Source of the DNA: Patescibacteria group bacterium
Lineage (GTDB): Bacteria; Patescibacteriota; Minisyncoccia; Minisyncoccales; Staskawiczbacteraceae
DNA length: 38,487 nt
NCBI GenBank assembly: GCA_038065835.1
Contig: JBBTQB010000029.1
Span: forward strand, 1 to 38,487
Direction of reading: 5' to 3'
Of this stretch, positions 8,468-38,487 are shown piece by piece (the first letter of the stretch is position 1; each line of letters begins with the position of its first letter). Made by a program: the position numbers and the translations under genes. The notes under the pieces were generated by a model. That model did no database searches and was not told the origin of the DNA. It saw only the letters and a program-made list of their open reading frames with translations.

Positions 8468-8554
8468 AAAACCCAGTACATTGTATCGGTTTGCCTGGGG
8501 CTCTAGCTGTGTTAGCTCAGAGTGAGAGGTAAACCAACAACGGAGGAATTGGCT

Positions 8555-10402: not shown

Positions 10403-11641
10403 ATGGATTTAAAAAACTTTCAAAGAGCACTATCTCAAATAGCAGAAACTAGAGGAATTTCCGAGCAAGCTATAATTGAAACGCTAGAGGCGGCCTTAGC
10501 TACTGCATACAAAAAAGATTATGGCCAAAGGGGCCAGAAAATAAAAGCCAAGTTCAATCCCATTTCTGGAGATGTCAAATTTTGGCAGGTTAAGCTAGTT
10601 GTTGATGAATCAATGCTTTACACAGAAGAAGAAATTGAAGAATTAAAAGCTAAGAAAATGTCTCCTGCAGAAGATTTTTCTGCTGCAGGTGGATCTGCCT
10701 CTGGTGTAGGCGGGGTGCAGCAAGAAACTCCTCAAAAAGTGATTTTTAATGATGAAAAGCACATAATGCTTGAAGCTGCAAGAGAAAAAAAACCGGATAT
10801 TAAAGCTGGAGAAGAGCTGGAAATCCCATTGGTTTCAAAACAGGATTACGGTAGAATTGCCGCTCAAACAGCAAAACAAGTTATTTTACAGAAAATAAGG
10901 GAAGCTGAAAAGGATGTTATTGCCGCTGAATACAAATCAAAAGAAGGTGAAATTATTTCGGGTATTGTCCAAAGGCTTGAGGGAAATACAGTTTTAGTTG
11001 ACATTGGCAAAACTTTGGGGATTTTGAATAGAGAAGAACAAATACCAAGAGAATTCTATAGGCAGGGGCAAAGGATGAAGTTTTACATTTTAAAGGTTGA
11101 AGAAACGCCAAGAGGCTCTGTTGTTGTGCTGTCCCGCGCTTATCCAAAGCTGGTATCACGACTTTTTGAACTAGAAGTTCCTGAAATATCTTCGGGCGTA
11201 GTTATCATAAAATCAATTGCCAGGGAACCTGGATACCGAACAAAAATTGCCGTTGCTTCAGAAGAAGAGAAGATTGACCCTATTGGCGCCGTAGTTGGTC
11301 AACGTGGTACCAGGATCATGGCGGTGATTAATGAATTAGGAGGAGAGAAAATTGATGCTATTTTATGGGAAAATGAACCAGATAAATATATTGCCAATTC
11401 CTTATCTCCGGCAAAAGTGTCAGATGTTAAAATTGAAGATAAAAATACCGCGTTGGTTTCTGTAGCCGAAGACCAGCTATCATTAGCTATTGGTAAAGAT
11501 GGTAGGAATGTAAGGTTGGCCTCAAATTTAACAGGCTGGAAAATTGATATTAAACCAGTAGTTGTAAAAGAAAAGAAGGAGGAAGCGCAGGAGGACAACG
11601 AAGAGTCTGAAGAAAAAGAAGGAAAAAGTGAAGAAAAGTAA
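10403..11641 (+). CDS. nusA: Transcription termination/antitermination factor NusA
   Basis: NusA N-terminal domain, S1 and two KH domains (…GEIISGIVQRLEGNTVLVDIG…, …DPIGAVVGQRGTRI…, …LAIGKDGRNVRLASNLTGWKIDI), and an acidic tail. Confidence 0.9.
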   Translation: MDLKNFQRALSQIAETRGISEQAIIETLEAALATAYKKDYGQRGQKIKAKFNPISGDVKFWQVKLVVDESMLYTEEEIEELKAKKMSPAEDFSAAGGSASGVGGVQQETPQKVIFNDEKHIMLEAAREKKPDIKAGEELEIPLVSKQDYGRIAAQTAKQVILQKIREAEKDVIAAEYKSKEGEIISGIVQRLEGNTVLVDIGKTLGILNREEQIPREFYRQGQRMKFYILKVEETPRGSVVVLSRAYPKLVSRLFELEVPEISSGVVIIKSIAREPGYRTKIAVASEEEKIDPIGAVVGQRGTRIMAVINELGGEKIDAILWENEPDKYIANSLSPAKVSDVKIEDKNTALVSVAEDQLSLAIGKDGRNVRLASNLTGWKIDIKPVVVKEKKEEAQEDNEESEEKEGKSEEK

Positions 11642-11986: not shown

Positions 11987-14020
11987 ATGCTAGTAGAATT
12001 TTTCCCTATTATTGTTTCGCTCTTTGCGATTGCTTTTGTTTGGTTTTTAGTGAAAAAAATCAGCAAAGCGCCAATAGCAAGAGACAAGGCAATTGAAATA
12101 ACTAAAGCTATTCAAGAGGGAGCTGTTGCCTATTTAAAGAGGCAGTATAAAACGGTAAGCATTGTTGCCGTTATTTTATTTCTGTTTTTATGGATTTTCA
12201 TGGGTCCAAAGATGGCATTTGGATTTTTGATTGGAGCTTTTTTGTCGGGATTGGCTGGCTTTATTGGAATGTGGGTATCAACACAAACAAATACAAGAGT
12301 TGCAGAAGGAGCAAAAAGAGGATTAGGCCACGCTTTAGATTTGGCATTTAAAGGAGGCTTGGTAACAGGGCTTTTAGTAGTAAGCTTAGGTCTTTTGGCA
12401 ATATCTGGATATTACTTTTTAACAAAGAATATTCAACCCCTTATTGCCCTGGGCTTTGGAGCTAGTTTAATTTCTGTTTTTGCCAGAGTTGGCGGTGGAA
12501 TTTACACAAAAGCGGCTGACGTTGGAGCCGATCTGGTAGGAAAAGTTGAAAAAGGAATTCCAGAAGATGACCCAAGAAACCCAGCTGTAATAGCTGACCA
12601 AGTTGGAGATAATGTTGGAGATTGTGCTGGTATGGCAGCTGATATTTTTGAAACCTATTCTGTAACAATAGTTGCCACAATGATTTTGGGTACTTTGTTG
12701 TATCCCGCATCTCCGCAGTTTGTATTACTGCCGCTATTTTTGGGAAGCATTTCAATTTTAACTTCTATTATTGGAAGCTTCTTTGTAAAATTACCTGCCC
12801 GTAATGCTTCGCATAGCGATGCAGGCGGGGGTAAGTCAAAAAACATTATGGGAGCCATGTACAAGGGCTTAGCTGTTTCGGTTGTGTTGTCTGCTATTGG
12901 TTTTTACCCCTTAATTTTAAAAATGATGGCAGGACAGGATATTTCAGTAATCAATTTGTATCTCTCAACATTGGTTGGATTAGTTATAGCTGCCGGAATG
13001 TTTGTCATAACAGAATACTACACCTCAAAGAGATATAGCCCAGTGAGGTCAATTGCCAAAGCTTCAGAAACCGGACACGGAACAAATATTATAAGAGGGC
13101 TTGGGCTTGGTATGCAGTCAACTGCTTTTCCTGTTTTGTTGATTGCGATTGGAACCGTTGTATGCTACTGGCTAGCTGGAATTTACGGAGTGGCTTTGGC
13201 AGTGATGGCAATGCTTTCCATATCTGGAATTGTTGTTGGTGTTGACGCTTACGGACCAATTACAGACAATGCAGGTGGAATTGCAGAAATGGCTGGGCTT
13301 CCAGAAGAAATAAGAAATATTACTGACTCACTAGATGCTGTAGGGAATACCACCAAAGCCGTAACCAAGGGCTACGCTATCGCTTCAGCGGGTTTGGCAG
13401 CATTAGTTTTGTTTGCTGTCTACAGCCAAGAAGTAATGAATTTAATGGGCTCAGCAAACGCTGTAAGCTTTGTCTTGGATAATCCAAAAGTGATTGCCGG
13501 ATTATTAATAGGAGGGCTACTTCCCTATTTGTTTGCCAGCTTCTTAATGGGGGCTGTCGGAAAAACCGCAGGCAAAGTTGTTGAAGAAGTCCGCAGGCAA
13601 TTTAAAAATATTGCTGGTTTGATGGAAGGCACGGCAAAACCAGAATACGGCAAATGCGTAGATATTGTAACCAAGGCAGCCATTAAAGAAATGATGGTAC
13701 CAGCTTTAATTCCGGTGGTAGCTCCAATACTAGTCGGGTGGATTTTAGGAGTTGAGGCTTTGGGAGGATTATTGATTGGATCAATTGTCACAGGATTGTT
13801 TGTGGGCATCTCCATGACTACTGGTGGAGCTGCATGGGACAATGCCAAAAAATACATTGAAGAAGGACACCACGGAGGCAAGAAATCATTCGCCCACCAA
13901 GCCGCTGTAACCGGAGACACCGTGGGAGATCCTTGCAAGGATACTGCAGGTCCAGCAATCAACCCAATGATCAAAGTGTTGAATATTGTTGCCCTCTTAA
14001 TAGTTTCTTTCTTGGTGTAA
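11987..14020 (+). CDS. hppA: Membrane-bound proton/sodium-translocating pyrophosphatase
   Basis: 677 aa, polytopic, with signature motifs …[20 protein letters not shown]…, …[17 protein letters not shown]…, …DNAGGIAEM…, …[25 protein letters not shown]. Confidence 0.9.
12794..12829 (+). repeat. Family-A hairpin element, 36 nt, in frame in hppA
   Basis: CCTGCCCG-TAATGCTTCGCATAGCGAT-GCAGGCGGG, encoding [12 protein letters not shown]. It is a GC-rich patch in an AT-rich gene. Confidence 0.75.
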
Positions 14021-14372
14021 GGTTAGTTTGATTTGGTTTTTTAGTAGTTCTGTTTTAATATCAACTCTCAATTGAATCCATTTTTCTTGTAGGTCAGCCC
14101 ATTTTCTGCTTTTATTTATTAGGATAAAATTCATCTTCCTTGTTTTCTCGCTATGTTTGCTTAAGGGGAGCAATTTCTTTACCAATGAGATTATTTCCCT
14201 CCTACGATTTATTGTTAGGTCAAACATATTTTGGTTATAAGTTCCATAGTTGGTTTTAGTTCCCTTTTTCCTATCTAGATATAAATAAGGATGATAATTG
14301 AATGTTTCCAGGCGTGTCTTTATTTGTTTTAATATTTCTGAATCACCAGTTCTGATTTTAACAATTTGGGGT
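13997..14372 (-). pseudogene. Truncated LAGLIDADG-type homing endonuclease remnant (C-terminal half)
   Basis: The frame is open from a TGA at ~14373 and reads ...KIRTGDSEILKQIKTRLETFNYHPYLYLDRKK...MFDLTINRRREIISLVKKLLPLSKHSEK.... It resembles the second half of the 20443-21174 protein, has no plausible full-length start, and overlaps the hppA 3' end. Confidence 0.35.
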
Positions 14373-14391
14373 CAGACCCAGGCCTGACCCC
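14368..14391. repeat. GC-rich hairpin GGGGTCAG-ACCCAGGC-CTGACCCC
   Basis: 8-bp stem. The loop shares the CCCAGGCC/GGCCTGGG motif with the family-C loops. Confidence 0.6.
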
Positions 14392-14410
14392 ATCACCTCA
14401 TAAAATGACA

Positions 14411-15151: not shown

Positions 15152-15220
15152 CCTGCCCGCATTGCTACGCCAGCCCGACAGCCTAGCAGTCTTGGCGGCG
15201 GGCAAAGCGTTGCAGGCGGG
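15152..15220 (+). repeat. Family-A hairpin element, long (69-nt) intergenic copy
   Basis: CCTGCCCGC-ATTGCTACGCC...AAAGCGTT-GCAGGCGGG with an internal GCCCG...CGGGC sub-hairpin. Confidence 0.8.
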
Positions 15221-15237
15221 TGACATTTAAACATATT

Positions 15238-15570
15238 ATGGACTTAGTAAATAAAAAGATTCTTTCTCATAAGGAGATGGTAAAACTAAATGAGGAAGAA
15301 GTCAAAGATTATCTTTCCCAATTAAAAGATGGGTGGGAGTACCAACGAGACCCGGCCTCGTTGGTAAGAAAGGAGTTTAAGTTTGAGGACTTCGCGAAGA
15401 CGATGGAGTTTGTAAATAAAGTTGCAGATATTGCAGAAAAAGAAGGGCATCACCCTGACATCGCCATTCACTACAATAAAGTGGATGTCACCCTTTGGAG
15501 CCACTTTATAAACGGCCTATCAATCAACGACTTTATCATCGCCGCTAAGATCGATAATATAATTTTATAA
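15238..15570 (+). CDS. Pterin-4-alpha-carbinolamine dehydratase (PCD/DCoH family)
   Basis: ...FKFEDFAKTMEFVNKVADIAEKEGHHPDIAIHYNKVDVTLWSH... is the PCD signature. The GTG start in the track (15220) lies inside the repeat, so ATG 15238 is preferred. Confidence 0.8.
   Translation: MDLVNKKILSHKEMVKLNEEEVKDYLSQLKDGWEYQRDPASLVRKEFKFEDFAKTMEFVNKVADIAEKEGHHPDIAIHYNKVDVTLWSHFINGLSINDFIIAAKIDNIIL
15341..15365 (+). repeat. Family-B hairpin inside the PCD gene
   Basis: ACCAACGAG-ACCCGGC-CTCGTTGGT. It is nearly identical to the reverse complement of 22712-22734. Confidence 0.75.
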
Positions 15571-15626: not shown

Positions 15627-15686
15627 CCTGCCCGCCAAAGCCCCTGCCTGTGCGTATCCGCACGCAGACAGGTTGGCGCAGGCGGG
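15627..15686 (+). repeat. Family-A hairpin element, long (60-nt) intergenic copy
   Basis: CCTGCCCGC-CAAAGCCCCTGCCTGTGCGTATCCGCACGCAGACAGGTTGGC-GCAGGCGGG. Confidence 0.8.
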
Positions 15687-15708: not shown

Positions 15709-16338
15709 ATGAAAAAGTTGTTTTTAACTTCAAATGGACTTATGACCCCAAAACTAAAGGAAAGGTTTTTAGAATTTGTTGGTAAAAATCCAAAAGATAT
15801 CAAAGTTCTTTTTGTTCCTACAGCATCACAAAGAAATAAGGACAAAGATTACTTAGAGATGAAAGCAGCTTATTTTAAGCATTGCGAAGAAGAAATGATG
15901 GGTATGGGAATTAAAAAGGAAAACTTATTTTGGCTGGATATAAACAATATTTCAGCAGCTGGAGACTTAAACTCATATGATGTAATGTATATGTGCGGGG
16001 GAAATACTTTTTATTTATTGCACGAAGTTAAAAGAACTGGTTTTGACAAGCAAATTATTAATTTTATAAACAGTGGCAAGGTTTATATTGGAGTTTCGGC
16101 TGGAAGTATTCTTGTTGGCCCAGATATTTCAATTGCGGGACCCTTCGATCTAAACGATATTGGCTTAAAAAATCCCACAGGGCTTGGAGTGACAGATAAA
16201 ATAATTTGTCCCCACTATCAAAAAGTAGAGGAAAAAGTTGTGGTGGGAGTTGAGGAGAAAGGCAATTATAGAGTTGTGCGGTTAAGAGATGACCAATCTT
16301 TAGAAGAAGTAGACGGTATTTCAAAGATTATTGAGTAA
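15709..16338 (+). CDS. Peptidase E-like (S51 family) dipeptidase
   Basis: MKKLFLTSNG...VLFVPTAS...MYMCGGNTFYLL...YIGVSAGSIL. The extended track start (15673) lies in the repeat. Confidence 0.7.
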   Translation: MKKLFLTSNGLMTPKLKERFLEFVGKNPKDIKVLFVPTASQRNKDKDYLEMKAAYFKHCEEEMMGMGIKKENLFWLDINNISAAGDLNSYDVMYMCGGNTFYLLHEVKRTGFDKQIINFINSGKVYIGVSAGSILVGPDISIAGPFDLNDIGLKNPTGLGVTDKIICPHYQKVEEKVVVGVEEKGNYRVVRLRDDQSLEEVDGISKIIE

Positions 16339-16349: not shown

Positions 16350-17666
16350 GTGAAAACTGCAAAAAAGGATTTAAGCAAATCGCAATTAGAAATAGAATTC
16401 GAATTAACCGCAGAAGAATTTAATGAATATGTTGATAGAGCCTTAGATCATTTAAAGTCTCATACAAAGATTGATGGGTTTAGGCAGGGACAAGTGCCGC
16501 GGGATTTGGTGGAAAAGAAAGTTGGGCAAGAAAACTTGCTAATGGAAGCAGGAGATTTGGCAGTTAAAAAAAGCTATGCAGGATATATAAATGAAAACGC
16601 CTTGGAACCCATTGGAAGACCCGAAGTGCAAATTAAAAAGATTGCGAAGGGAAATCCTTTTTTGTTTACGGTGAAAATTTCCATTTTGCCTGAAGTCATT
16701 CTGCCGAATTATAAAGAAATCGCCTCACAAGTAAAAGCAGAATCAATTTCCGTTGATGAAAAAGAAATTGAAGATGCCCTAAGTTATCTTCAAAAATCTC
16801 GTGCAAAGTTTTCGCAAATTGATCGAGGGGCAGAAGTAAAAGATTTTGTTGAGATTGAATATTCAAGCAAAGACATAAGTGATGGAAAAAAAATAAAAGA
16901 CAGATTTATTCTTGGTCAAAGCAGGTTTATGAGAGATTTTGAAGATAATATTTTGGGCATGAAAGCTGAAGACCAAAAGGAATTCAAAGTAAAGTTTCCA
17001 CCCGCCAGCAACGCTGAGCGTAGCTCTGCGGGCTGGGACAACGCGCCCAATAACCCTGGAGAAAAAGAAAGCACTTTTAAAGTAAAAATGGTCTCTGTGC
17101 AAAAAATAGAGTTGCCCGAGATTAATGATGAATTTGCAAAATCTCTTGGAGTTTTCGATAGTTTAGTTGCACTAAAAAGTAATTTGAAAGAAGGAATTAC
17201 AATGGAAAAGCAAGAGACCGAGAAGCAAAAAAAACAAGGCGAAGTTTTGAGTAATATTGCAGAGAAGATTAAATTTGATTTGCCAGAAAAAATGGTGGAG
17301 CTTGAAAAAGACAGATTATTACATGATTTAAAACACCAGGTTACAGAGCAGTTTAAAATGCCTTTTGGAGAGTACTTAAAGTCTGTTAAGAAAACAGAGG
17401 AAGAGATAAAGAATAATTATAAGCTGGATGCTGAAAAAAGGATTAAAAATTATCTTGTTTTAAGGCAGATTGGCAAGGCAGAAAATGTTGAAGTTTCAAA
17501 AGAAGAAATTGAGGAAGAAATGAATAAATTTATTAAAAATTATACAAAAGAGGAAGCAGATAAAATTGACATTGATCAACTAAAAGAGTATACTAAAGAT
17601 GCAATTATGAATGAGAAAGTATTTCAAATTCTTGAAACACTTTCTCAAAATTTTTTAAGTCGTTAA
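16350..17666 (+). CDS. tig: Trigger factor
   Basis: GTG start. N-terminal ribosome-binding region ...IDGFRQGQVP..., PPIase-like middle domain and C-terminal arms. Sits directly upstream of clpP, as is typical. Confidence 0.85.
   Translation: MKTAKKDLSKSQLEIEFELTAEEFNEYVDRALDHLKSHTKIDGFRQGQVPRDLVEKKVGQENLLMEAGDLAVKKSYAGYINENALEPIGRPEVQIKKIAKGNPFLFTVKISILPEVILPNYKEIASQVKAESISVDEKEIEDALSYLQKSRAKFSQIDRGAEVKDFVEIEYSSKDISDGKKIKDRFILGQSRFMRDFEDNILGMKAEDQKEFKVKFPPASNAERSSAGWDNAPNNPGEKESTFKVKMVSVQKIELPEINDEFAKSLGVFDSLVALKSNLKEGITMEKQETEKQKKQGEVLSNIAEKIKFDLPEKMVELEKDRLLHDLKHQVTEQFKMPFGEYLKSVKKTEEEIKNNYKLDAEKRIKNYLVLRQIGKAENVEVSKEEIEEEMNKFIKNYTKEEADKIDIDQLKEYTKDAIMNEKVFQILETLSQNFLSR
17001..17036 (-). 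repeat. Family-A hairpin element, 36 nt, reverse orientation, in frame in tig
   Basis: The plus strand CCCGCCAGC-AACGCTGAGCGTAGCTCT-GCGGGCTGG equals the reverse complement of the family consensus with 3-4 changes. It encodes PASNAERSSAGW. Confidence 0.65.
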
Positions 17667-20394: not shown

Positions 20395-20477
20395 TGCGCG
20401 GGACAGGAGTCGAACCTGCACGCCCGTGAGGGCACTGGCACCTCAAGCCAGCTCGGCTACCGTTACGACACCCGCGC
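20395..20477 (-). tRNA. tRNA-Leu(GAG), class II with a long variable arm
   Basis: Acceptor GCGCGGG/CCCGCGC, anticodon arm CTGGC-TTGAGGT-GCCAG, variable arm TGCCCTCACGGGCGT. Confidence 0.85.
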
Positions 20478-21174
20478 GTGTTTTTTGGCGTGCTATTGAT
20501 AATATATTTTCTATTTTAATTTTTTTTCTTTTTAAACAAATTACTTCACTATTGTAATAAATTCTTTCCAGTAATTTCAGAGATTCAGTCTTGGCGTACT
20601 TAAGTTGGTAAACTGAACTATTAATGCCTTTAGTAATGTGGCCTTTAATTTTTAAATTTTTTGTTATTGTTTCTTTAAGCCATTCCACATGATTCTTACT
20701 GGCAGAAACAAAAACTATATAAAACATAAAACTTGATCTCCATCGATTATCCCAATACGAGTACGATGAACCATCACCGTCAAAATGTCCCCGGAGAAAA
20801 TCAAAAAAATATTTTCTAGGAATCTTCAGCTTACTAAGAGTTTTTGATTTATTAGGAAATAAACCAATGCTTAACAAAAATTTATAAAAGTTTACATCTC
20901 CAAATTGTAATACATAATATTTCTTTTCCTCCTCTCCACCTCGAGCTTTTTTCCCAATTTTATTATTAAGGTTAAGACAAAGTTTGAAATTATCTATTTG
21001 CTCTTTGTCTTTTGAAGTAAAACTTATATGACGGCCATCTTTTATAAGACATCCATCGGTGGTAATCAGTCCTATTGCATAGGCTAGTTGAGGTGACCAT
21101 AGTGTTGATACTTTATTAAGGGGTTTCATTAGTTCATTATACCTCAAAGTATAAGTGAATACCAATCTTGTCAT
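20443..21174 (-). CDS. Free-standing double-motif LAGLIDADG homing endonuclease
   Basis: LAYAIGLITTDGCL and FLRGHFDGDGSS motifs. The 3' end of the ORF runs about 35 nt into tRNA-Leu. Confidence 0.8.
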   Translation of the reverse strand: MTRLVFTYTLRYNELMKPLNKVSTLWSPQLAYAIGLITTDGCLIKDGRHISFTSKDKEQIDNFKLCLNLNNKIGKKARGGEEEKKYYVLQFGDVNFYKFLLSIGLFPNKSKTLSKLKIPRKYFFDFLRGHFDGDGSSYSYWDNRWRSSFMFYIVFVSASKNHVEWLKETITKNLKIKGHITKGINSSVYQLKYAKTESLKLLERIYYNSEVICLKRKKIKIENILSIARQKTRAGVVTVAELA

Positions 21175-22102: not shown

Positions 22103-22822
22103 TTAGATTTTAAAATTATTTAGTATTTTCTTGAGATCTTCTGGTAAATCCGAATTGAATTCTTTCACGCTACCGTTCGGCAATCTTATCTTTAAATATG
22201 ATGAGTGTAAAAACTGCCTATTCAACCCTTTTGGAACAGGAGAGTCTTTAAATCCATACATCTTATCCCCGGCAATTGGATGATGGATATAAGCTAAATG
22301 ACATCTTATTTGGTGCTTCCTGCCTGTTTTTGGCTTAACTTCTAATAAAGAATATCTATCAAACCTCTCTAAAACTTTATACTCTGTAATCGCCTCTCTT
22401 TTCCCCGCGAAAGCCGGGCTTTTGCGGGGAAAGGCTTTTTGCTTGCGGGGGTCGGCAGGAGATCTTCCAATCAATGTTTCAATTCTCCCTTCTTCTTCTT
22501 TCACTATACCGTTGGCAAGAGCCATGTACTTCTTCTCCACCTCTCTACTTTTAAACTGTTTTTGTAAAAAAAGCAAGGATTCGTTGTTTTTTGCGACTAA
22601 AAGTATGCCCGATGTATCTTTATCTAGTCTATGAACAATCCCATGCCTTGTCGCTTCTCCAACACTCTTTAATTCTGGCTTTTGCTCTAAAAGATAATCT
22701 ATTAATGTCTTACCAACGAGGCTGGGTCTCGTTGATCTCGTTGATTCTAGAAAAACCACTACTCCCGCCGGCTTATCAACTACCAAAACATCATTATCTT
22801 CATAAATTACTTTAAAATCCAT
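22103..22822 (-). CDS. RluA-family 23S rRNA pseudouridine synthase (RluD-like, lacking an S4 domain)
   Basis: ...VVDKPAG...HRLDKDTSGILLVAKN... catalytic motif, and ...GRKHQIRCHLA.... Confidence 0.85.
   Translation of the reverse strand: MDFKVIYEDNDVLVVDKPAGVVVFLESTRSTRPSLVGKTLIDYLLEQKPELKSVGEATRHGIVHRLDKDTSGILLVAKNNESLLFLQKQFKSREVEKKYMALANGIVKEEEGRIETLIGRSPADPRKQKAFPRKSPAFAGKREAITEYKVLERFDRYSLLEVKPKTGRKHQIRCHLAYIHHPIAGDKMYGFKDSPVPKGLNRQFLHSSYLKIRLPNGSVKEFNSDLPEDLKKILNNFKI
22402..22459 (-). repeat. GC-rich repeat patch in frame in the pseudouridine synthase gene
   Basis: The minus strand reads CCTGCCGAC-CCCCGCAAGCAAAAAGCC-TTTCCCCGCAAAAGCCC-GGCTTTCGCGGGGA, which is two direct copies and one inverted copy of CCCCGCAAAAGCC. 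It encodes about SPADPRKQKAFPRKSPAFAGK. Confidence 0.6.
22712..22734 (-). repeat. Family-B hairpin in frame in the pseudouridine synthase gene
   Basis: The minus strand CAACGAGACCCAGCCTCGTTGGT matches 15343-15365 at 22 of 23 positions. It is preceded by a 9-nt duplication (TCAACGAGA x2) and encodes STRSTRPSLVGK. Confidence 0.75.
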
Positions 22823-24234: not shown

Positions 24235-27200
24235 TTATTTTTTAAATTTAGAATTTGTTTGTGATTTAGAATTTGTAGTTTGAGATTTTTTGCCTATAAT
24301 ATTCTCAAACTCTTCCCTCTCTATTGTTTCTTTCTCAATTAGGGTTTTGGCAATTTTTTCGAGTAACTTTTTATGCTGCCTTACTATTTTTCCAGCTCTT
24401 ACTTCTTCACTTTTGATAATTTTTTCAATCTCTGCATCTATTTTTGTCGCCACTGCTTCAGAATAATTTCTTTGTTCTGATATTTCCCTGCCTAAAAATA
24501 CCAGCTCATCTCTGTCACCAAAAGATATTGGTCCCAAAGAAGACATGCCATATTCTTTCACTATTTTTCTGGTTAACTCAGATGCTTTAACCAAATCGTT
24601 TGAAGCACCTGTAGACATTTCACCAAATATCAGTCTTTCAGCTGAAAGTCCTCCTAACAAAGTGGCAATTTCAGCCAAGAATTGGGTCTTTGTTCTCATT
24701 TTGTTTGATTCTGAAGGAACTTGCAAAGTATATCCGCCAGCCATGCCTCTTGAGATAATGGATATTTTTCTTATTGGCTCTGTTCCGGGAATTGAGCTGG
24801 AAACCAAAGCATGTCCTGCTTCGTGATATGCAGCAATCTCCTTTTCTTTTTTTGATAAAATATGAGATTTCCTTTCAGGACCCAGTAAAACTTTTTCTAT
24901 TGATTCTAAAAATTCTCCCTGTGAAACCTGTGTTTTATTCCTTCTTGCAGCTAATAAAGCAGCTTCATTTGCCACATTTGCCAAATCAGCCCCTGAAAAC
25001 CCGGGTGTTCTTTCAGCAATTTCTTTGAAGTTTACATTAGAAGACAATGGCTTTTCTTTTGAATGGATTTTTAAGATTTCTTCTCTATCATGGACGTCTG
25101 GCAGATCCAAAACAATTTTTCTATCAAACCTGCCTGGCCTTAAGAGAGCTGGGTCTAAAATATCTCCCCGGTTGGTATTATGTAATAAGATTGGTTCCTC
25201 GCCGCCAAAAAATGCTTCATTATTACAACCGCAAAAGTCATATACATATCCGTTATAGGGAATTTTTTTAACGTTTTTTATCATTGGCCTTTCCACTGAA
25301 CCAGAAATTCTTACATCTTGATCTAATAAAGGATTTTGAGTTTTGCCGAAACCCAACCTCCATGCAATGCTTGTTTTCAATGGTTTACCATTATTAATTA
25401 CCCTTCCCTCTTTTGTTTTAAAAGAATGAATATACCCTTTAAATCCGTGCATTCTGAATAGCCAGTTAAGCTCTATGATCAGCTGTTTGCTCATAGAAGT
25501 AACTTCTCCTCTATCTCTTTTATCAATATGACCATCTCCATAAAAATATCCCTTAAAATACTCTTTAAAATATTCGAATGGTGCTTCAAAAAGGAAAGAA
25601 GGTACATGCTTATTTTTTGCCCCCTTGCCACAATAAAAAGAAAAGAAATTAGCTAGTGGGGTGCATTGGTACACAATATTTACCGCACTGTTGCTTGTCA
25701 GCCTTACAGTATGAGGTTCGATATTAAATATATTTTTCATTAACATTTTAACATCTTGTATTTTTGCAGTTTCCTTCCTATTGAAACAGAAGTCTACTTC
25801 ATTTCTTGCATATCCCTCGGCAGTATAGTAACCAAGAAGACGCATTAATTCCGGAGTAACTTTTACGGTTTCTGGCAAGACATTTTTATGCTGGTAGTAA
25901 TTCCTGGAAAGTTGCCTTGGTCCGCATATCCCTTGTTGCCATTTTCCAATAGTCCTCTGTGAAAATCCAAGATCTTTACCCAATTGGGTCTGGGAAATTT
26001 CACCAACGTGAGCTAAAGCATATTGATAATTAAAATGTATCGGCTCGAATCTTTCAAAAAGTGGTTGCCATACAGAAAGTTCAAGATTAAAACTTGTATT
26101 AAATGTATGCGCTCTAATTTCTTTTTTATGAGAAGTTCTATTAGCTTTATATGGCATGTTTACCAGAATGTCTCCTTGGACAAGGTCAGCAACTGCTTTT
26201 GTTTTTAATCCACTACGAGTTCTTACAAACACCGAATGGTTTCCGGTTGCTTTGATTTTTCCGCCAACATATTCAATTTCGTAAATTTCTTTTACTTTAT
26301 GCCGAAACACACTTCGCACCTTCTTGAAGGCACTATGAGAAAAGTAGACACTATTTTTATTGCGTCCAGTTAATATTTTTTTTTCAAACCCCAACACTTC
26401 AATTTCAGGAGAGTCTTTTTCTACATTTTCTTCACCCTCTTGGTAATAAGGATCAATAACCTGAGAAATTGGCAATAATTTGTAATTATTATTTTTCTTT
26501 ATTAGGACCTGGGTATCTTCAGTAACACTCGCTGCCATAACAATTACTCCAGACTCTCTTTCAAAACCATCCATTTCAACCAAAATCATATTTAATGTTT
26601 GCTCTCTCTCATCATGTCCTCCGCCAATTCCAGCTCCCCTGTGGCGCCCAATGGCATCTAGCTCATCAATAAAGATTATTGACGGGGAAGCTTTCTTTGC
26701 CATAGAAAATAAATCCCTCACTCTTGCCGATCCCACTCCAACAAACATTTCAACAAATTCTGACCCCGAAATGGAAAAGAATGGTACATTGGCCTCACCA
26801 CTGACGGCACGCGCCAATAAAGTTTTTCCCACTCCAGCAGCCCCTAAAAGCAGTACGCCCCTTGGTATTTTTGCTCCCATTGCTAAATACTTTTTGGGAA
26901 ACTTCAAAAAATCTACAATCTCTATCAGCTCTTCTTTAGCTTCTTTTAATCCTGCAACATCCTTAAAAGTTATTTTTTGTTTATCATGGCCCTCAGCTCC
27001 AAAAATTCTGGCTTTTGCCCTTGTAAAATCAAAAACTTGCATAGCCCCAGATTTTGTTTGCTTTAGCATTGTCCAAAGGAAAAATCCAATAAGAAGCAAT
27101 GGTAAAACCCCGTAAAGTAAAGCAGGAAACAACCAAGTCCACATGCTTTGTTGTTCTAGTTCAGCTGATATTTCAACTTTTTGTAATTTTACTGGATTAG

Positions 27201-27468
27201 CTCCCAAATTAACCAAAACTTCCGACAATACAGAGTTTGTCTCTTTCATTGAAATGGCTTTTGATTCATTATTATAAGTTATGGCTATGCTCTCGCCAGA
27301 AACAGCAATTTTCTTAACTTTATCCTGATTTATTTCAGAAACTAACTGGGAAATTGATATTTGATTTGACTCGCCTGTTGGAAAATAAAACAAGCTGAAA
27401 ACACCCCCTATGGCCAGGAATATTAGTACAACAAAAATAAAGTTTTTAATAAGTGGATTTAGTTTCAT
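24235..27468 (-). CDS. ftsH: ATP-dependent zinc metalloprotease FtsH, intein-containing
   Basis: Walker A GAAGVGKT, Walker [12 protein letters not shown] ...[12 protein letters not shown], zinc site HEAGHAL. The preferred start is MKLNPLIKN (27468). The track ORF extends to 27576 across the divergent promoter. Confidence 0.9.
25177..26529 (-). mobile_element. FtsH intein (451 aa) with a LAGLIDADG homing endonuclease domain
   Basis: The host sequence VIVMAA|...|[12 protein letters not shown] is interrupted. Intein blocks: SVTEDTQVL (Ser1), [17 protein letters not shown] and [15 protein letters not shown]...ILLHN followed by Thr+1. The codon phase was checked at both junctions. Confidence 0.85.
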
Positions 27469-27519
27469 ATTGACAATATAACACTCTTTTAAATATCTTT
27501 CAACCTCAAATAGGTGGTA

Positions 27520-27548
27520 TTGACACATTGTAGTGTATATGATATCAC
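27520..27548 (+). promoter_or_regulatory. Promoter TTGACA-N14-TGA-TATCAC, second copy of the shared block
   Basis: See 8439-8467. It lies between the divergent ftsH start and the orphan gene. Confidence 0.55.
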
Positions 27549-27650
27549 TAAAATAGTACCTCACATTACACTTCATGCGATTTTGCTCATACTTGTGGGT
27601 AAAATCGTGTGAAGTGTTTCGAGATTTCCCATTTCCGAAAGGATAAGTCC

Positions 27651-28283
27651 ATGTTGTACATCACGAACGCCCTATCTCAGATCACGGACATTTTCGTGTC
27701 CACCAAGGATTGGGATACGTCCACGCCCGATACCGTGAAGGGGTTCTTCACCAAGTACAACGGCGTTGGTGTCTTACCCTTGACCAAGCAAAACACGGGG
27801 GCATCACAGAATCAGGCCCCGCAGACCGAGCAGAAGCCTACTTACGAGAAGGAGGAGCCGGAGGTCATCGTCGAGAGTGAGCCCAACTGCGGGCTCCTGG
27901 AGTACTTCAATAGTCTCTGTGACCACGAGTTCAGGATTTACGCCCTGTACCGCGAGGTCAAAGAGAGATGGGTGAAGATCCGTATCCAGGCCTGCCCCGA
28001 CTACGACATCGGATGGGACAAGAAGCGTCCCTTCGATGAGATGAATGAGGTTGCCGGCACCATCTACAGCATGGCTGGCTATAGGCTGGACGTGAAGCAT
28101 TTCACGTACAAGAAGCCCGGCCGCACGCCCGACGAAAAGCGATCCATCTTCGTAAAGGCCGACCAGTTGAACTGGTTAGTTGGCAAAGACGGGAAGCCCC
28201 TCCTCGTCGGCAAACCGCCGAGGCCCAAGAAGGCACGGAACCAGCTGGTTATCACGGACGATGGGGAATTTAAAGTGGCGTAG
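27651..28283 (+). CDS. GC-rich orphan protein (hypothetical)
   Basis: The track ORF is 27609-28283. ATG 27651 is preceded by AAAGGATAAGTCC. It is clearly GC-richer than ftsH and valS. No family recognised. Confidence 0.6.
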
Positions 28284-31870: not shown

Positions 31871-31937
31871 GTGAAACATAAAACGTGAAACATTTACGAA
31901 TTGCCGTTATGTTTCAGGTTTCAAGTTTCAAGTTTCA
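31871..31937. promoter_or_regulatory. Array of TGAAAC/GTTTCA hexamers in the divergent rpsA/MBL leader
   Basis: GTGAAACA occurs twice (31871, 31885). GTTTCA then occurs four times with a 7-nt period (31911, 31918, 31925, 31932), and the last copy overlaps the ATG at 31937. Confidence 0.5.
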
Positions 31938-32623
31938 TGAAAATTACTTGGGCTGGGCAGGCCTGCTTTCAAATTTCAGTCTCTGGCTCACCTAACCGTA
32001 ATGCTACAAATGTAGCAGGCGGGAAAGACAATCAGGTAAATATTGTTATTGACCCATTTGGAGAAATCGGCTTAAAAATACCTAACTTTGAAGCTGATAT
32101 TTTGCTTTTGACTCATGGTCACGAAGACCATAATAACGCAAAAGCTATTAGGGGAAGTCCATTTTTAATCAACGGACCGGGCGAATACGAAGTAAAAGGT
32201 GTTTTTGTACAGGGCATTGATTCTTTTCATGATGATAGCTTGGGTAAAGATAGGGGCAGGAATACTATTTACACAATTGAAGCAGAAGATATGAAATTTT
32301 GCCACCTTGGCGATCTTGGGCAGAAACAGCTAACTGATGAACAATTGGAAAAAATTGGCACAGTTGATATTTTAATGATTCCGGTGGGCGGAGTTTATAC
32401 TATTGATTCGTCGGATGCTTCAAAAATCATTGGACAAATAGAACCCAAAATTGTAATTCCAATGCATTATGAGTTGCCCGGCTTAAAATTCAAATTAGAT
32501 GGCGTTTCAAAATTCTTAAAGTCAATGGGCAAAAACTCTATTCAGCCACAGGATAAACTAACAATCAAAACCAGCACCCTTCCCAAGGACAGAGAAATGG
32601 AAATAATAGTTTTAAAGCCATAA
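31937..32623 (+). CDS. Metallo-beta-lactamase-fold hydrolase (UPF0173-like)
   Basis: MKITWAGQACFQI...LLTHGHEDHNN.... The track ORF starts at TTG 31901. Confidence 0.75.
   Translation: MKITWAGQACFQISVSGSPNRNATNVAGGKDNQVNIVIDPFGEIGLKIPNFEADILLLTHGHEDHNNAKAIRGSPFLINGPGEYEVKGVFVQGIDSFHDDSLGKDRGRNTIYTIEAEDMKFCHLGDLGQKQLTDEQLEKIGTVDILMIPVGGVYTIDSSDASKIIGQIEPKIVIPMHYELPGLKFKLDGVSKFLKSMGKNSIQPQDKLTIKTSTLPKDREMEIIVLKP
31991..32023 (+). repeat. Family-A hairpin element, 33 nt, degenerate left end, in frame in the MBL hydrolase gene
   Basis: CCTAACCG-TAATGCTACAAATGTA-GCAGGCGGG, encoding PNRNATNVAGG. Confidence 0.6.
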
Positions 32624-32964: not shown

Positions 32965-35900
32965 ATGGCTAAAGAAGAACCAGAAAAAATACAAGCAATA
33001 GGACAAGTAAAGAAAAGAGAAATAGTGCAAGAGCTTAAAGAGTCATACATTGACTACGCAATGTCGGTCATTGTTGCTCGCGCCCTGCCCGATGTAAGAG
33101 ATGGCTTAAAGCCCGTCCATCGCAGGATTTTGTTTGCGATGTTGGAGGAAGGATTACGACACAACGCAAAGTTGAGAAAGTCAGCAACCGTGGTGGGAGC
33201 TGTTTTAGGACGCTATCATCCACATGGAGACATTGCAGTTTACGACTCAATGGTAAGAATGGCTCAAGATTTTAATATGAGATATCCCCTTGTTCAGGGT
33301 CAGGGAAATTTCGGCTGTTTTACTAAAGATATTAAAGTAAAACTTACCGACGGAAGAGATTTAACATTTGAAGAGTTAGTAAAGGAATATCATCAGGGCA
33401 AGAAAAACTTTGCTTTTACTGTTGATAGTAATGGGAAAATAGTTATTGCAGAAATTAAGCATCCGAGAAAAACCATAGAAAACGCTCCAATCATTAAGAT
33501 AACACTAGATAATGGAGAAACAATAAAATGTACACTTAATCATAAATTCATGCTGAAAAATGGAACTTGTAAAGAAGCTCAATACCTGACTGAAGGAGAA
33601 TCGCTCATGCCTCTTTATACAAAACTTTCAGAACGAGAAAATGATATTAATTTAGGGGGCTATGAATTAGTTTTTCAACCCAATTCAAACTCATGGTATT
33701 TTACTCATATGCTTGCAGACGAATGGAATATTGAAAATAACGTGTATGAAAAATCACAAGGTAGAATACGTCACCATATAGATTTTAATAAATTAAACAA
33801 TAATCCTAATAATATAAAGAGAATCGGATGGAAAGAACATTGGCAAATACATTATACAATTGCTTCAAGGAGGCATAGTGAAGATGCTCTATATAGAGAA
33901 AAAATAGCAAAAGGAAGAAAAGATTTTTGGGCTAATGCTGAAAACAGAAAAAAACATTCTGAAAGAATGACCATAAGAAACATTAAGAATTGGAAGAAAA
34001 AAGATTATAGAGAAAATATGAGAGCATTTTTAAGTGAGATAAATAAAAAATACTTGGCAGAGCACCCTGAAAGAATTGAGGAAATAAGAAAAACTGCTTC
34101 AAAGACCATGAAAAGATTGTGGCAAATTCCAGAGTATAAAAGTCTATTTCATAAGAAAATTGTCGCAAGCAATAAAAGAAGGGTTACTAATCTAACAGGA
34201 AGGTCTAAATTTTTGAGAATCTGTAAATACTTATCAAACAATAACTTAGAGATAAATAAAGAAAATTATGAGAAAATCAGAGTAGATATTTTCGGAGGGG
34301 CATGTTTCACGACATGGGATTTAGGTATTGGCAAATACTTTAAAGATAATAAAGATTCAGTACTATTTTCAATCAATCAAAATCATAAAGTTATAAAAAA
34401 AGAATTTTTAAATAAAAATGAAGATGTTTATGACTTAACGGTGGAAGTAACTCATAATTTTGCTTTATCTTGTGGGATATTTGTCCATAATTCGAATGAC
34501 GGGGATTCGCCGGCAGCGCAAAGATACACAGAGGCGCGTCTTTCTTCTATAGGCGAAGCAATGTTGGCTGATATTGAAAAGGATACTGTAAACTTTGCAG
34601 ATAACTATGATGGGACAAGAAAAGAACCTACTGTCCTACCCTCTCCTTTACCTCAGCTTCTTTTAAATGGATCGTTGGGGATTGCTGTTGGCATGGCAAC
34701 TAATATACCCCCTCATAATTTAACTGAGTTGATAGACGCTCTCATTTATTTGTTGGATTATCCAAAATCAGAGACATCTGATTTGTTCCAATTTATACAA
34801 GGACCTGATTTTCCTACCGGAGGCGTAATTTACGACCAAAAAGAAATTATTTCTGCCTACTCTCAAGGTAAGGGCTCAATCATAATGAGGGGCAAAGCTG
34901 AAATAATTGAAAAAGAAAAAGATGGATCTGAACAAATTGTAATATCAGAGCTTCCTTATCAGGTTTTAAAATCCAGCTTAGTTGAGAATATGGCAAGTCT
35001 GGTTTCAGAGAAAAAGGTTGAGGGCATAAGAGACATAAAAGATTTATCAGATAGGCAGGGAATGGCTATTATTATTGATATTAAGAAAGGTTTTGATCCT
35101 CAGAGAGTTTTGAATAGGTTGTATAAGTTTACTAATCTTCAAAAAACATTCCATTTAAACTTATTGGCTCTGGTTGACGGAATCCAGCCAGAAATTCTTT
35201 CAATTTCTGATGTTTTAAAATACTTCATAGTGCATCGCACTGAAGTCGTAACAAGAAGGACTAAGTTTGACTTGGAAAGAGCTAAAGAAAGAGCCCATAT
35301 ATTAGAAGGATTAATGGTTGCCCTAAAAAAGATTGATGCTGTTATTGCCTTGATTAAAAAGTCAAGAGACCGGGAAGATGCAAAGAATAACCTAATCAAA
35401 AAATTCAGGCTTACTGAAAGGCAGGTAATTGCCATATTGGAAATGAAGCTGCAGACTTTAGCTGGATTAGAAAGAAAGAAAATTGAAGATGAGCTAAAAG
35501 AGATTTTAGAAAAAATCAAAGAATTTACCGCTATTTTAAAAAGTCCAGAAAAGTTAAAAAATATTATCAAGAAAGAGCTGCAGGAATTAAAGGAAAAGTT
35601 CGGGGACAAAAGGAAAACAAAAGTTATAAAGCAAAAATTAGGTGAAATTTCAGAAATTGACTTAGTGCCCTTAGAAGATACCATGGTAACTTTGACTACC
35701 GGAGGGTATATCAAAAGGATTAACCCAGCTACTTATAAAATCCAAAAGAGGGGAGGCAAGGGAATTATGGGAATGAAGACCATGCAAGACGATATTGTAG
35801 AACATTTCCTTTTTGCCTCGACTCATGATAACCTATTGTTTTTTACAAATTCTGGAAAAGTTTTTCAAACTCAGGTTTATGAAATTCCAGAGGGAACAAG

Positions 35901-36684
35901 GGTAGCCAGGGGTAGGGGGTTGATGAATTTTTTGGAAATCTCAGCTGAGGAGAAAGTTTTGTCACTAGTGCCTCTGGAAAAATTAGAAGTAGGGCAAGAA
36001 AGAAACGAAAAATATTTAATGATGGTTACCAAAAACGGGCGGATTAAAAAAACATCCTTGGAAGAGTTTAAGAACGTAAGAAAATCAGGGATAATAGCTA
36101 TAAAATTAGAAAAAGGAGACTTGCTGAAAAAAGTTGTTAAAACCAGTGGCCAAGATGACATAATTTTGGCAACAAAAAATGGTTTATCCATTAGATTTAA
36201 AGAAAAGGACATAAGACCGATGGGCAGAGCAACAGCAGGGGTTAGAGGCATAAGGCTTAAGAAAGGACCTGCCCGCAGTGCTACAGGCGTTGCAGGCGGG
36301 GATGAAGTCATTGGAATGGACGTCATCTCGGCAAATGGCAAAGAGCAAATGGCAAATGGTAAGAAAGTAAAGCAGTACTTTTTGGTTGTAATGGAAAATG
36401 GATATGGTAAAAGAACAGAAATTTCCCAGTATAAAGTTCAAGGAAGAGGAGGTTCTGGGATAAAAACTGCAAATATTACTTCAAAGACTGGCAGAATAGT
36501 TATGTCCTGCATTTTAGATGACTCAACAGAAAACGAAGACTTGATAGTAATATCTCAAAAAGGCCAAGTTATAAGGACGGTTACAAAATCAATATCTTTG
36601 CTTGGTAGAGCAACGCAAGGAGTTAGAATAATGAGGTTGGACCAGGGCGATAAAGTTGCTTCTGGAGCTTGTTTTAAGGAGTAA
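32965..36684 (+). CDS. gyrA: DNA gyrase subunit A, intein-containing
   Basis: ...RALPDVRDGLKPVHRRIL..., YHPHGD, ...AAQRYTEARL (active-site Tyr), and C-terminal beta-pinwheel repeats. Confidence 0.92.
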   Translation: MAKEEPEKIQAIGQVKKREIVQELKESYIDYAMSVIVARALPDVRDGLKPVHRRILFAMLEEGLRHNAKLRKSATVVGAVLGRYHPHGDIAVYDSMVRMAQDFNMRYPLVQGQGNFGCFTKDIKVKLTDGRDLTFEELVKEYHQGKKNFAFTVDSNGKIVIAEIKHPRKTIENAPIIKITLDNGETIKCTLNHKFMLKNGTCKEAQYLTEGESLMPLYTKLSERENDINLGGYELVFQPNSNSWYFTHMLADEWNIENNVYEKSQGRIRHHIDFNKLNNNPNNIKRIGWKEHWQIHYTIASRRHSEDALYREKIAKGRKDFWANAENRKKHSERMTIRNIKNWKKKDYRENMRAFLSEINKKYLAEHPERIEEIRKTASKTMKRLWQIPEYKSLFHKKIVASNKRRVTNLTGRSKFLRICKYLSNNNLEINKENYEKIRVDIFGGACFTTWDLGIGKYFKDNKDSVLFSINQNHKVIKKEFLNKNEDVYDLTVEVTHNFALSCGIFVHNSNDGDSPAAQRYTEARLSSIGEAMLADIEKDTVNFADNYDGTRKEPTVLPSPLPQLLLNGSLGIAVGMATNIPPHNLTELIDALIYLLDYPKSETSDLFQFIQGPDFPTGGVIYDQKEIISAYSQGKGSIIMRGKAEIIEKEKDGSEQIVISELPYQVLKSSLVENMASLVSEKKVEGIRDIKDLSDRQGMAIIIDIKKGFDPQRVLNRLYKFTNLQKTFHLNLLALVDGIQPEILSISDVLKYFIVHRTEVVTRRTKFDLERAKERAHILEGLMVALKKIDAVIALIKKSRDREDAKNNLIKKFRLTERQVIAILEMKLQTLAGLERKKIEDELKEILEKIKEFTAILKSPEKLKNIIKKELQELKEKFGDKRKTKVIKQKLGEISEIDLVPLEDTMVTLTTGGYIKRINPATYKIQKRGGKGIMGMKTMQDDIVEHFLFASTHDNLLFFTNSGKVFQTQVYEIPEGTRVARGRGLMNFLEISAEEKVLSLVPLEKLEVGQERNEKYLMMVTKNGRIKKTSLEEFKNVRKSGIIAIKLEKGDLLKKVVKTSGQDDIILATKNGLSIRFKEKDIRPMGRATAGVRGIRLKKGPARSATGVAGGDEVIGMDVISANGKEQMANGKKVKQYFLVVMENGYGKRTEISQYKVQGRGGSGIKTANITSKTGRIVMSCILDDSTENEDLIVISQKGQVIRTVTKSISLLGRATQGVRIMRLDQGDKVASGACFKE
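33316..34491 (+). mobile_element. GyrA intein (392 aa) with an HNH-type endonuclease region
   Basis: The host sequence QGQGNFG|...|SNDGDSPAAQRYTEARL is interrupted. Blocks: CFTKDIKV (Cys1), TLNH, RHHIDFNKLNNNPNNI (HNH-like), VYDLTVE...GIFVHN followed by Ser+1. The codon phase was checked. Confidence 0.85.
36268..36300 (+). repeat. Family-A hairpin element, 33 nt, in frame in gyrA
   Basis: CCTGCCCGC-AGTGCTACAGGCGTT-GCAGGCGGG, encoding PARSATGVAGG in the C-terminal domain. Confidence 0.75.
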
Positions 36685-38427: not shown

Positions 38428-38437
38428 TTTTATTATT

Positions 38438-38463
38438 AGAGTGCAGGATTCGAACTATCATCA
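38438..38463. repeat. Arm of the 26-nt palindromic repeat, copy at the contig end
   Basis: AGAGTGCAGGATTCGAACTATCATCA, identical to 10114-10139 and the reverse complement of 26-51. Confidence 0.8.
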
Positions 38464-38487
38464 GATTGAGAATCTCAAAAATGAGAT

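Follow-up and report, generated by a model that had tools for sequence, protein, structure and literature searches.

A short palindromic repeat in Patescibacteria genes and the probable origin of its single-frame peptide

Why does the same short peptide recur in unrelated proteins encoded within one small stretch of a bacterial genome? The window analysed here (the whole stretch of 38,487 nt from contig JBBTQB010000029.1, assembly GCA_038065835.1, of a Patescibacteria group bacterium) carries a GC-rich imperfect palindrome, referred to below as family A, within the genes for a membrane pyrophosphatase (hppA), DNA gyrase subunit A (gyrA), an MBL-fold hydrolase and trigger factor. An earlier sequence-only reading had reported that the first three of these insertions encode a recurrent peptide of the form P-A-R-x-A-...-A-G-G, and had proposed two possible causes, namely purifying selection for a harmless flexible loop or an insertion mechanism tied to the reading frame or to transcription and translation. 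Our results favoured the first cause. With a probability of roughly 0.78, family A is a non-autonomous mobile element, and its bias towards the frame encoding this peptide arose from selection acting after frame-blind insertion.

Genic copies and their empty sites

The hppA copy (36 nt, 12794-12829, plus strand) lies in phase 0 and encodes 12 residues of the P-A-R-x-A-...-A-G-G type. In gyrA, the copy CCTGCCCGCAGTGCTACAGGCGTTGCAGGCGGG (33 nt, 36268-36300, plus strand) begins 3303 nt from the start of the open reading frame (ORF), a distance divisible by three, so that CCT GCC CGC ... is read in phase 0 as PARSATGVAGG. A degenerate 33-nt copy in the MBL-fold hydrolase gene (31991-32023, plus strand) is also read in phase 0, as PNRNATNVAGG, and a 36-nt copy in the trigger-factor gene (17001-17036, minus strand) reads PASNAERSSAGW in the same codon phase. 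The hosts are plus-strand ORFs: the H+-PPase gene hppA (11987-14020; 871 bits), gyrA (32965-36684; 1239 codons, with an intein at aa 127-509), the trigger-factor gene (16350-17666) and the hydrolase gene (Lactamase_B_3; 31901-32623), whose true start is probably an ATG a few codons inside the ORF. The codon phase described by the sequence-only reading was thus common to all four genic copies, whereas forward orientation held for only three of them, the trigger-factor copy being reversed.

A covariance model trained on 32 copies (31 from other organisms and the trigger-factor copy of the window) scored the hppA, gyrA and MBL segments at 61.5 bits (E 4e-12), 45.3 bits (E 2e-8) and 21.2 bits (E 4e-3), each well above its own opposite strand, and the trigger-factor copy at 53.4 bits on the minus strand. 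The three segments therefore align at the nucleotide level and, with the frame read-out, were confirmed as one family with a common peptide. Six-frame translation also agreed with the earlier description of the alternative frames, which yield Cys/Arg-rich (CPQCYRRCRR) and Leu/Gln-rich peptides. The 3' nonamer GCAGGCGGG, allowing at most one mismatch, occurs nine times in the window, against 2.46 ± 1.43 in shuffled sequences (0 of 100 shuffles reached nine). The hairpins of the copies fold at -7 to -12 kcal/mol, with z-scores of about -3 against shuffles for three of the four genic copies and -1.7 for the gyrA copy. In total, 38.5 kb hold four genic and at least three intergenic copies.

Comparison with relatives revealed empty sites. 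The best hppA homologs are 88% identical and labelled Candidatus Staskawiczbacteria, and most of 120 homologs run FFVKL-GKSKN unbroken where the window protein has 12 extra residues. In the syntenic relative L143, GTA AAA CTT is followed directly by GGA AAG TCA, whereas in the window 36 nt separate GTA AAA TTA from GGT AAG TCA. Similarly, TTT CCA adjoins GAA AAC in the trigger-factor gene of L143, whereas 36 nt separate TTT CCA from GAC AAC in the window, and the trigger-factor insertion is equally clean relative to L122 and L121. Both are exact between-codon insertions relative to L143, with zero target duplication and zero loss of bases. The gyrA insert is absent from GyrA of L090 and L007; L090 GyrA has a copy of its own in a different blade, also in the forward phase-0 frame (F0), and the identical 33-mer lies inside a different gene of another organism (L077). 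The insert in the hydrolase is absent from homologs in L033 and L090. Among all the homologs compared, one (P0006) carries an insert of 6 residues. In the sense that their hosts are unrelated and their sites are empty in close relatives, the insertions are independent.

Contigs from groundwater runs indicated that the window genome occurs together with related strains whose hppA site is empty. In runs X1, X5 and X7, several assembler contigs stop within or at the edge of the hppA copy (12793-12840), and related-strain contigs join 12792/12793 to 12840 via about 10 other bases. The X1 bases at this junction, GGAAAGAGTC, read like an empty-site allele; the X7 bases are GGGGCGAGGCC.

All four genic inserts sit in protein loops. 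In an AlphaFold model of the hppA product (mean pLDDT 79.9), insert residues 270-281 lie in a coil between two transmembrane helices (244-264 and 287-313), the pLDDT falls below 50 at residues 271-284, and the solved homolog 8b37 is shorter at this site. The gyrA insert occupies the turn GIRLKKG..DEVIG of a C-terminal beta-pinwheel blade, a stretch unaligned to solved GyrA C-terminal domains. The trigger-factor insert lies in the loop of the peptidyl-prolyl isomerase (PPIase) domain after FP, where E. coli trigger factor is gapped. Placement on host structures (the hppA model, and gaps or unaligned turns in solved homologs at the hppA, gyrA and trigger-factor sites) was thus consistent with the loops envisaged in the sequence-only reading.

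Some of these sites have been used repeatedly. The same hppA codon boundary holds different subfamily members in different lineages (36, 24, 60 and 33+45 nt, plus a variant in L260), and in L123 the same 78-nt two-element composite, read PARHNTTALGGADGVPAQSPTGNEAG, is present in both the hppA and the trigger-factor loop (10991-11070 and 15747-15830). It would thus seem that composites move, or are converted, as single units. The repeated use of sites could reflect a small number of permissive positions, the nesting of new elements in a copy already present, or true targeting.

Frame census and competing explanations

A scan of one genome per species with the pattern CCTGCCCGYANTGCTN{6,24}GCAGGCGGG, which has 23 specified bases, returned at least 120 loci, and the same pattern returned at least 120 loci in metagenome contigs; the taxonomic range is a lower bound. 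The matches listed came from many Patescibacteria lineages and from metagenome-assembled genomes (MAGs) of Verrucomicrobiota, Kiritimatiellia and Lentisphaerae (55-61% GC), and some low-GC MAGs among them bear proteobacterial labels (labels as given, unconfirmed). IMG/VR contained 19 matching loci, on viral contigs of 48-66% GC, while INPHARED phages and PLSDB plasmids gave zero matches.

A census was drawn from these two collections (genome and metagenome loci) and comprised 262 non-redundant copies among the matches listed; it is cross-genome, rather than of the single-genome kind proposed in the sequence-only reading. The frame was called as the longest stop-free frame spanning a copy, and the copy was taken as genic if that frame had at least 120-200 codons, reached 10 or more codons beyond the copy in both directions and clearly exceeded the next frame in length. 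The pattern demands intact termini, and gene calls are ORF-based, long spurious ORFs being rare in low-GC contigs. In the low-GC contigs, 64 of 185 copies (35%) were genic and 121 intergenic. Among the genic copies, 51 were in F0, four in F1, two in F2, five in R0, two in R1 and none in R2, where F and R denote forward and reverse frames. This excess of F0 (p = 3e-28 against 1/6; p = 7e-20 against 1/4) was found in both collections (28/35 genome loci and 23/30 metagenome loci). The frame bias noted in the window therefore generalises.

Length and orientation behaved differently inside and outside genes. Lengths were divisible by three in 63 of 64 genic copies, compared with 83 of 121 intergenic copies. 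Between co-directional genes in low-GC contigs, 21 intergenic copies had the same orientation as the genes and 20 the opposite, in contrast to 57 forward and seven reverse copies within genes (Fisher p = 2e-5), indicating that, with respect to transcription, the element has no preferred orientation of its own. The properties of F0 itself were distinctive. When consensus sequences of six subfamilies were translated in six frames, F0 was the sole frame always free of both stops and Cys; its peptide has an initial Pro and a final Gly-Gly, and in no variant is it as hydrophobic as that of F1. F1 is hydrophobic, F2 is Cys/Arg-rich and often contains a stop, and R2 also often contains a stop. The runner-up, R0, gives P-A-x-N-...-A-G-R/W peptides (e.g., PACNALRSNAGR, PARNDSRSDSGR and the trigger-factor peptide above), which mimic the F0 peptide, the element being quasi-palindromic. 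In the host proteins, the stretches of six residues that flank F0 copies on each side are more hydrophilic than the remaining sequence (Kyte-Doolittle -0.71 versus -0.19, p = 0.005), with K and E enriched.

These observations are those expected of a filter acting after insertion. Insertion would be blind to reading frame, and purifying selection would then purge nearly all genic copies. Survivors would be those with a length divisible by three that lie exactly between codons, in forward orientation and in a solvent-exposed loop, where the element would be translated as Pro-Ala-Arg-x-Ala-...-Ala-Gly-Gly, a short, Cys-free, hydrophilic segment bracketed by Pro and Gly. The intergenic symmetry, the length classes, the properties of F0 and the hydrophilic flanks all point to such a filter, as does the genic share of only 35%, since compact genomes of this kind are mostly coding (about 90% by rough estimate). 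With mobility at the DNA level and a filter at the protein level, the recurrent peptide would be a by-product. Of the two causes raised in the sequence-only reading, selection for a harmless loop is thus the one supported by the frame counts, the stop-free, Cys-free and hydrophilic F0 peptide, the loop sites and the genic lengths, and coupling of insertion to the frame is not.

Among the alternatives, the one that survives best is that a target-site preference (insertion after A, often in T-N-A) makes the phase bias, because in an AT-rich genome such sites would fall mostly after the third codon position. We consider this unlikely, although the preference itself exists. Position -1 is A in 24/36 intergenic high-GC, 29/54 intergenic low-GC and 19/28 genic F0 copies (54-68%), the 24 of 36 being from genomes of 55-60% GC; position -2 is T in 44-48% of intergenic copies; and A-ending codons (AAA, GAA, TTA, GGA) precede many genic copies. 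However, A is frequent at codon positions 1 and 2 as well, so that the expected enrichment should be far below the 51:4:2 ratio of the forward frames. The preference also leaves unexplained the 57:7 strand asymmetry, intergenic copies being symmetric, and the genic absence of lengths that are not multiples of three. Thus, a preference for A at -1 cannot account for the observed ratios or the strand asymmetry.

A second alternative is that the P-A-R-x-A...A-G-G peptide is functional, for example as a docking, cleavage or modification motif, and that positive selection has kept its frame. Its recurrence in dozens of unrelated proteins across lineages, always at exposed positions, would fit such a role, but the conservation was found at the level of the nucleic acid. 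The consensus is CCTGCCCGCAATGCT[T/A]CGCATAGCG[A/T]TGCAGGCGGG, with lengths of 30-48 nt (commonest 36). In the minimum-energy fold, nt 5-9/32-36, 12-14/28-30 and 16-19/23-26 are paired and 5'-CCTG is free (this unpaired tetranucleotide is CCAG in one copy); in a second, mutually exclusive hairpin, nt 1-5/28-32 and 7-14/18-25 are paired and 3'-CGGG is free. Both hairpins showed Watson-Crick covariation (pair 16:26, UA 12, AU 11, GC 2, GU 5; pair 11:21, AU 14, GC 8, UA 4). These compensatory stem changes freely swap encoded residues (S/T, D/V, N/I/S, H/Q), which argues for constraint on the nucleic acid and not on the peptide. Furthermore, the identical sequence is just as common outside genes (121 of 185 low-GC copies), the hosts share no theme (pump, gyrase, chaperone, hydrolase, RecJ-like) and close relatives do without the insert. 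A functional peptide is therefore very improbable as the cause of the bias.

Still less credible is insertion that itself depends on the reading frame or on transcription and translation, landing only forward and in phase. The forward phase-0 majority (51/64), the coincidence of element ends with codon boundaries in 56 of 64 genic copies (F0 and R0 combined) and the repeated use of one hppA codon boundary would be in line with it. However, the even intergenic orientation (21 versus 20), the genic copies that are reverse or out of phase (F1 4, F2 2, R0 5, R1 2), including the reverse trigger-factor copy in the window, and the genic share of just 35% all stand against such coupling. Lengths that are not multiples of three are common between genes and missing within them, as a filter predicts, and we know of no DNA integration mechanism that reads codon phase. 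The idea that the element is removed after transcription like an intron, or skipped in translation as bypass elements are in yeast mitochondria, so that frame would be irrelevant, is the least probable of all. It could draw on the stable hairpin and on the tRNA-like sequences holding the element, in which its presence would be lethal otherwise. However, length and frame would then be free, yet 63/64 lengths are divisible by three and 51/64 copies share one frame, and the element-bearing tRNA copies are partial duplicates adjoining an intact tRNA, which makes splicing unneeded.

Several points weigh against the filter after insertion. The reuse of the hppA boundary and the fact that the trigger-factor loop was hit more than once represent some site preference, for which random insertion plus selection does not account, and the preference for A at -1 could add a small codon-phase bias. 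High-GC contigs of the Planctomycetes-Verrucomicrobia-Chlamydiae (PVC) group gave a wider spread of genic frames (F0 9, F1 5, R2 4, R0 1, R1 1), although ORF-based calls are unreliable there. Because the pattern requires intact termini, old or degenerate copies are under-sampled. Among the runs searched, the genome was found in DNA runs only, and translation of the inserts is predicted from sequence. Finally, the mobilising enzyme is only conjectured, the Y1 transposase genes in the loci being flanked by different palindromes of their own.

Mobility, tRNA arms and other repeats

Family A integrates cleanly without target duplication, usually after A and often in stem-loop DNA, and its orientation is random outside genes. 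It resembles a REP (repetitive extragenic palindromic) element or an end of an IS200/IS605 element. The junctions are clean, the ends are asymmetric and hairpins are present; these features tell against a MITE (miniature inverted-repeat transposable element) of the DDE type and favour folded single-strand chemistry as in IS200/IS605 and in REP elements with their REP-associated tyrosine transposases (RAYTs). Our best guess is that an enzyme acting on folded single-stranded DNA moves the element, candidates being a small GIY-YIG nuclease or a Y1 (HUH) transposase working in trans.

ORFs of the 120 genome loci were clustered in a search for a RAYT partner. When a hidden Markov model of Y1_Tnp was run against every one of 240 sampled loci, six genes were found, none of them within 300 nt of a family-A copy. 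The flanks of six Y1_Tnp genes (five in sampled loci and one in L121) carried different palindromes of their own in five cases and family A in none, so that dependence of family A on a RAYT, as for a REP element, was not supported in these loci. A composite transposon on viral contigs was also rejected, since the recurrent arrangement of three copies over 3.7 kb encloses ordinary phage-like ORFs and the copies lie at gene ends. A second palindrome family, GGGGTCAG(A/T)CCCAGG(C/A)CTGACCCC, was observed in the window as a solo copy with no transposase gene (14367-14399), and in L121 (5167-5190 and 5858-5882) on both sides of a Y1_Tnp (RAYT-like) gene, in the classical REP-RAYT layout.

Family A was enriched near tRNA genes, with 17 of 136 copies within 300 nt of one, compared with 6.1 ± 2.1 for random positions. 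When the element was removed in silico and the junctions were compared with local tRNAs (blastn-short), 11 of 134 were partial duplicates of the neighbouring tRNA, versus 6 of 1339 controls. The insertion points within these tRNA sequences fell in the D arm (nt 11-12 and 21-23), the anticodon loop (nt 36), the T loop (nt 54-57) and the T-stem/acceptor (nt 66). Some copies lie in the loop of a host inverted repeat or of another family-A copy, and perfect flanking stems of at least 6 bp accompany 4 of 35 intergenic high-GC and 2 of 54 low-GC copies (controls about 1%). These are too few for flanking inverted repeats to be a universal target, and we regard them as a tendency only. Copies are mostly single, with few pairs, nested or tandem; in L230, two tandem 36-nt copies are translated through as 24 residues within one ORF.

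A second association was with GIY-YIG genes (PF01541), which were present in 21 loci. In these loci, which were chosen for the element, 19 of 24 copies lie within 300 nt of such a gene, compared with a mean of 5.7 and a maximum of 12 under random placement. The small GIY-YIG genes each lie directly 5' of a tRNA gene, and a recurring layout starts with nt 1-11 of the tRNA, continues with the element and a further dozen tRNA bases, and ends with the GIY-YIG gene followed by the intact tRNA. Such modules, encoding 78-90 aa and often placed before tRNA-Gln or tRNA-Asn, occur in many Patescibacteria (L061, L085, L067, L093, L017, L222, L197, L236 and others), each preceded by a duplicated 5' tRNA fragment that bears a family-A copy after about nt 11. 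As the loci were sampled for the element, the linkage could mean either that the nuclease mobilises it or that the nuclease merely makes neutral tRNA fragments where the element persists. Family A might conceivably be the non-autonomous partner of a tRNA-targeting GIY-YIG cassette, a hairpin 'homing' element in stem-loop DNA that moves among Patescibacteria, PVC-group bacteria and viruses; we hold this to be a speculative and rather unlikely scenario. If it were true, stem-loop DNA such as the universally conserved D, anticodon and T arms of tRNA would be the target, and the shared distribution would be a record of DNA passing between ultrasmall episymbionts and organisms that may be their hosts.

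The intergenic copies of the window included a nested pair upstream of the pterin dehydratase gene (15152-15220, plus strand), in which an inner 33-nt copy (15170-15202) is inserted at the apical loop of an outer 36-nt copy (15152-15169 plus 15203-15220). In the fold of the pair, one hairpin is set inside another (-23.4 kcal/mol, z-score -3.7). A 60-nt variant with the termini CCTGCCCGCC...GCAGGCGGG lies upstream of a peptidase S51 gene (15627-15686, plus strand). In the groundwater runs, contig word depth over its bin was several-fold above that of neighbouring bins, in keeping with a repeat. Direct reading of the sequence also identified a 107-nt insert with family-A termini (1182-1288, minus strand), which holds an intact tRNA-Arg(TCG) at 1198-1270. 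This insert splits a second tRNA-Arg(TCG) gene (1124-1305, minus strand) in the D loop, at GTGGTGAAATG^GATATC, into halves at about 1124-1181 and 1289-1305. The disrupting insert therefore supplies a replacement for the tRNA gene that it breaks.

The window is dense in selfish elements beyond family A. FtsH (24235-27576) contains an intein with a LAGLIDADG domain, and a free-standing LAGLIDADG ORF (20443-21174) abuts tRNA-Leu. A third repeat, CAACGAGACCCGGCCTCGTTGGTAAGA, lies in the pterin dehydratase gene (15343-15369) and in a pseudouridine synthase gene (22708-22734), in the same orientation relative to both hosts and in different frames; a related perfect 31-nt inverted repeat is found at 5126-5189. 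The gene for the CCA-adding enzyme carries an 81-nt GC-rich palindrome in-frame at 1742-1822, absent from the L143 ortholog. At this position the ortholog in L122 carries another insert, so that the site looks like a further hot spot. NusA has 8 extra residues at about 10685-10724. Two ORFs without a Pfam match (8522-9319 and 27609-28283) are far GC-richer than their surroundings; they could be of foreign origin, or spurious frames within GC-rich inserts. A repeat of 26-35 nt that resembles the T arm of a tRNA, TGATGATAGTTCGAATCCTGCACTCT, is present in inverted orientation at the two ends of the window (24-54 and 38435-38469) and as a head-to-head pair at 10111-10171, and may explain where the contig ends.

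Relation to known systems

Family A is apparently undescribed. Rfam gave zero matches, at the gathering threshold for the whole window or at an E-value threshold for the element, and in the literature we found no description of the sequence, nor any work on REP elements, RAYTs or palindromic repeats in these phyla. The consequences of such a repeat are partly practical. It coincides with contig ends in groundwater assemblies, it produces spurious-looking segments in protein alignments, and the partial tRNA duplicates could mislead annotation. More broadly, small mobile hairpins seem to contribute regularly to the extra loops by which Patescibacteria proteins exceed their homologs in length, including essential proteins (gyrase, membrane pyrophosphatase, trigger factor). 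Family A can serve as a natural map of sites that tolerate insertion and as a clean example of selfish DNA being filtered at the protein level.

The nearest precedent is the Rickettsia palindromic elements (RPEs), which were reportedly found in-frame in genes by Ogata and colleagues in 2000. RPEs are palindromic repeats located in-frame in unrelated, often essential genes, with a peptide conserved in one frame and compatible with the host fold (PMC10969869). Family A shares the palindrome, the in-frame insertion into unrelated genes and the single conserved frame (PAR...AGG in 51/64 genic copies), and both can be viewed as selfish DNA tolerated as an innocuous surface segment. In view of this precedent, the in-frame repeat phenomenon and its best explanation are already of a known kind. 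Unlike RPEs, which measure about 100-150 bp and are confined to Rickettsia, family A spans 30-48 nt (11-13 residues), is found nearly unchanged in Patescibacteria, PVC-group MAGs and viral contigs, and favours tRNA arms.

REP elements offer a second comparison. PMC3733652 defines them as extragenic, with GTAG or CGTC tags, and PMC3116915 and PMC3337134 provide the background on RAYTs and on REPINs, the doublets formed by REP sequences. Like these, family A is a short (20-40 nt class), GC-rich, imperfect and repeated palindrome with a conserved single-stranded tetranucleotide at the foot of the hairpin, inserted without target duplication. In contrast to REP elements, it is often intragenic (four copies in the window; 64/185 in low-GC contigs), starts with CCTG instead of a GTAG or CGTC tag, and occurs singly and conserved across phyla instead of as lineage-specific inverted doublets. 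True REP-RAYT pairs do exist in these genomes, as in L121, where GGGGTCAGTCCCAGGACTGACCCC flanks a Y1_Tnp gene on both sides.

The single-strand transposons IS608 and ISDra2 have sub-terminal hairpins and asymmetric ends, insert 3' of a short preferred sequence without target duplication and excise precisely. Family A has similar features (hairpins, asymmetric ends, insertion without target duplication), precise excision would fit the clean empty sites in close relatives, and its two offset hairpins each leave 4 nt free, at opposite ends, reminiscent of the recognition of left and right ends in IS200/IS605. Unlike these elements, it has no linked transposase in the sampled loci, its left-flank preference is weak (mainly A at -1), and even one IS608 end exceeds the entire element in length.

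MITEs, among them Correia/NEMIS, ERIC and the Coxiella QMITEs, are small non-autonomous elements that in some cases lie within genes and in some are translated as fusions (PMC10969869). Family A is likewise small, non-autonomous and sometimes intragenic. However, DDE-derived MITEs have terminal inverted repeats and a target duplication, whereas the family-A termini (CCTGCCCGC versus CCCGCCTGC) do not form inverted repeats, CCTGCCCGC is not the reverse complement of GCAGGCGGG, and the hppA and trigger-factor sites lack a duplication. The GC clusters of yeast mitochondria are GC-rich palindromes of about 30-50 nt in an AT-rich genome, sometimes in-frame (var1), with a short target duplication. 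They resemble family A in size, GC-richness and in-frame cases, but belong to a different type of genome and, unlike family A, insert with a duplication; no kinship of sequence is implied.

Set against these systems, family A stands apart by a size four times smaller than that of RPEs, near-identity across very distant phyla, two overlapping covarying hairpins and the association with GIY-YIG genes and tRNA arms. That a 36-nt element is almost identical in phyla so distant, and that it is linked to tRNA arms and GIY-YIG genes, extends beyond what the established biology of REP elements and MITEs explains.

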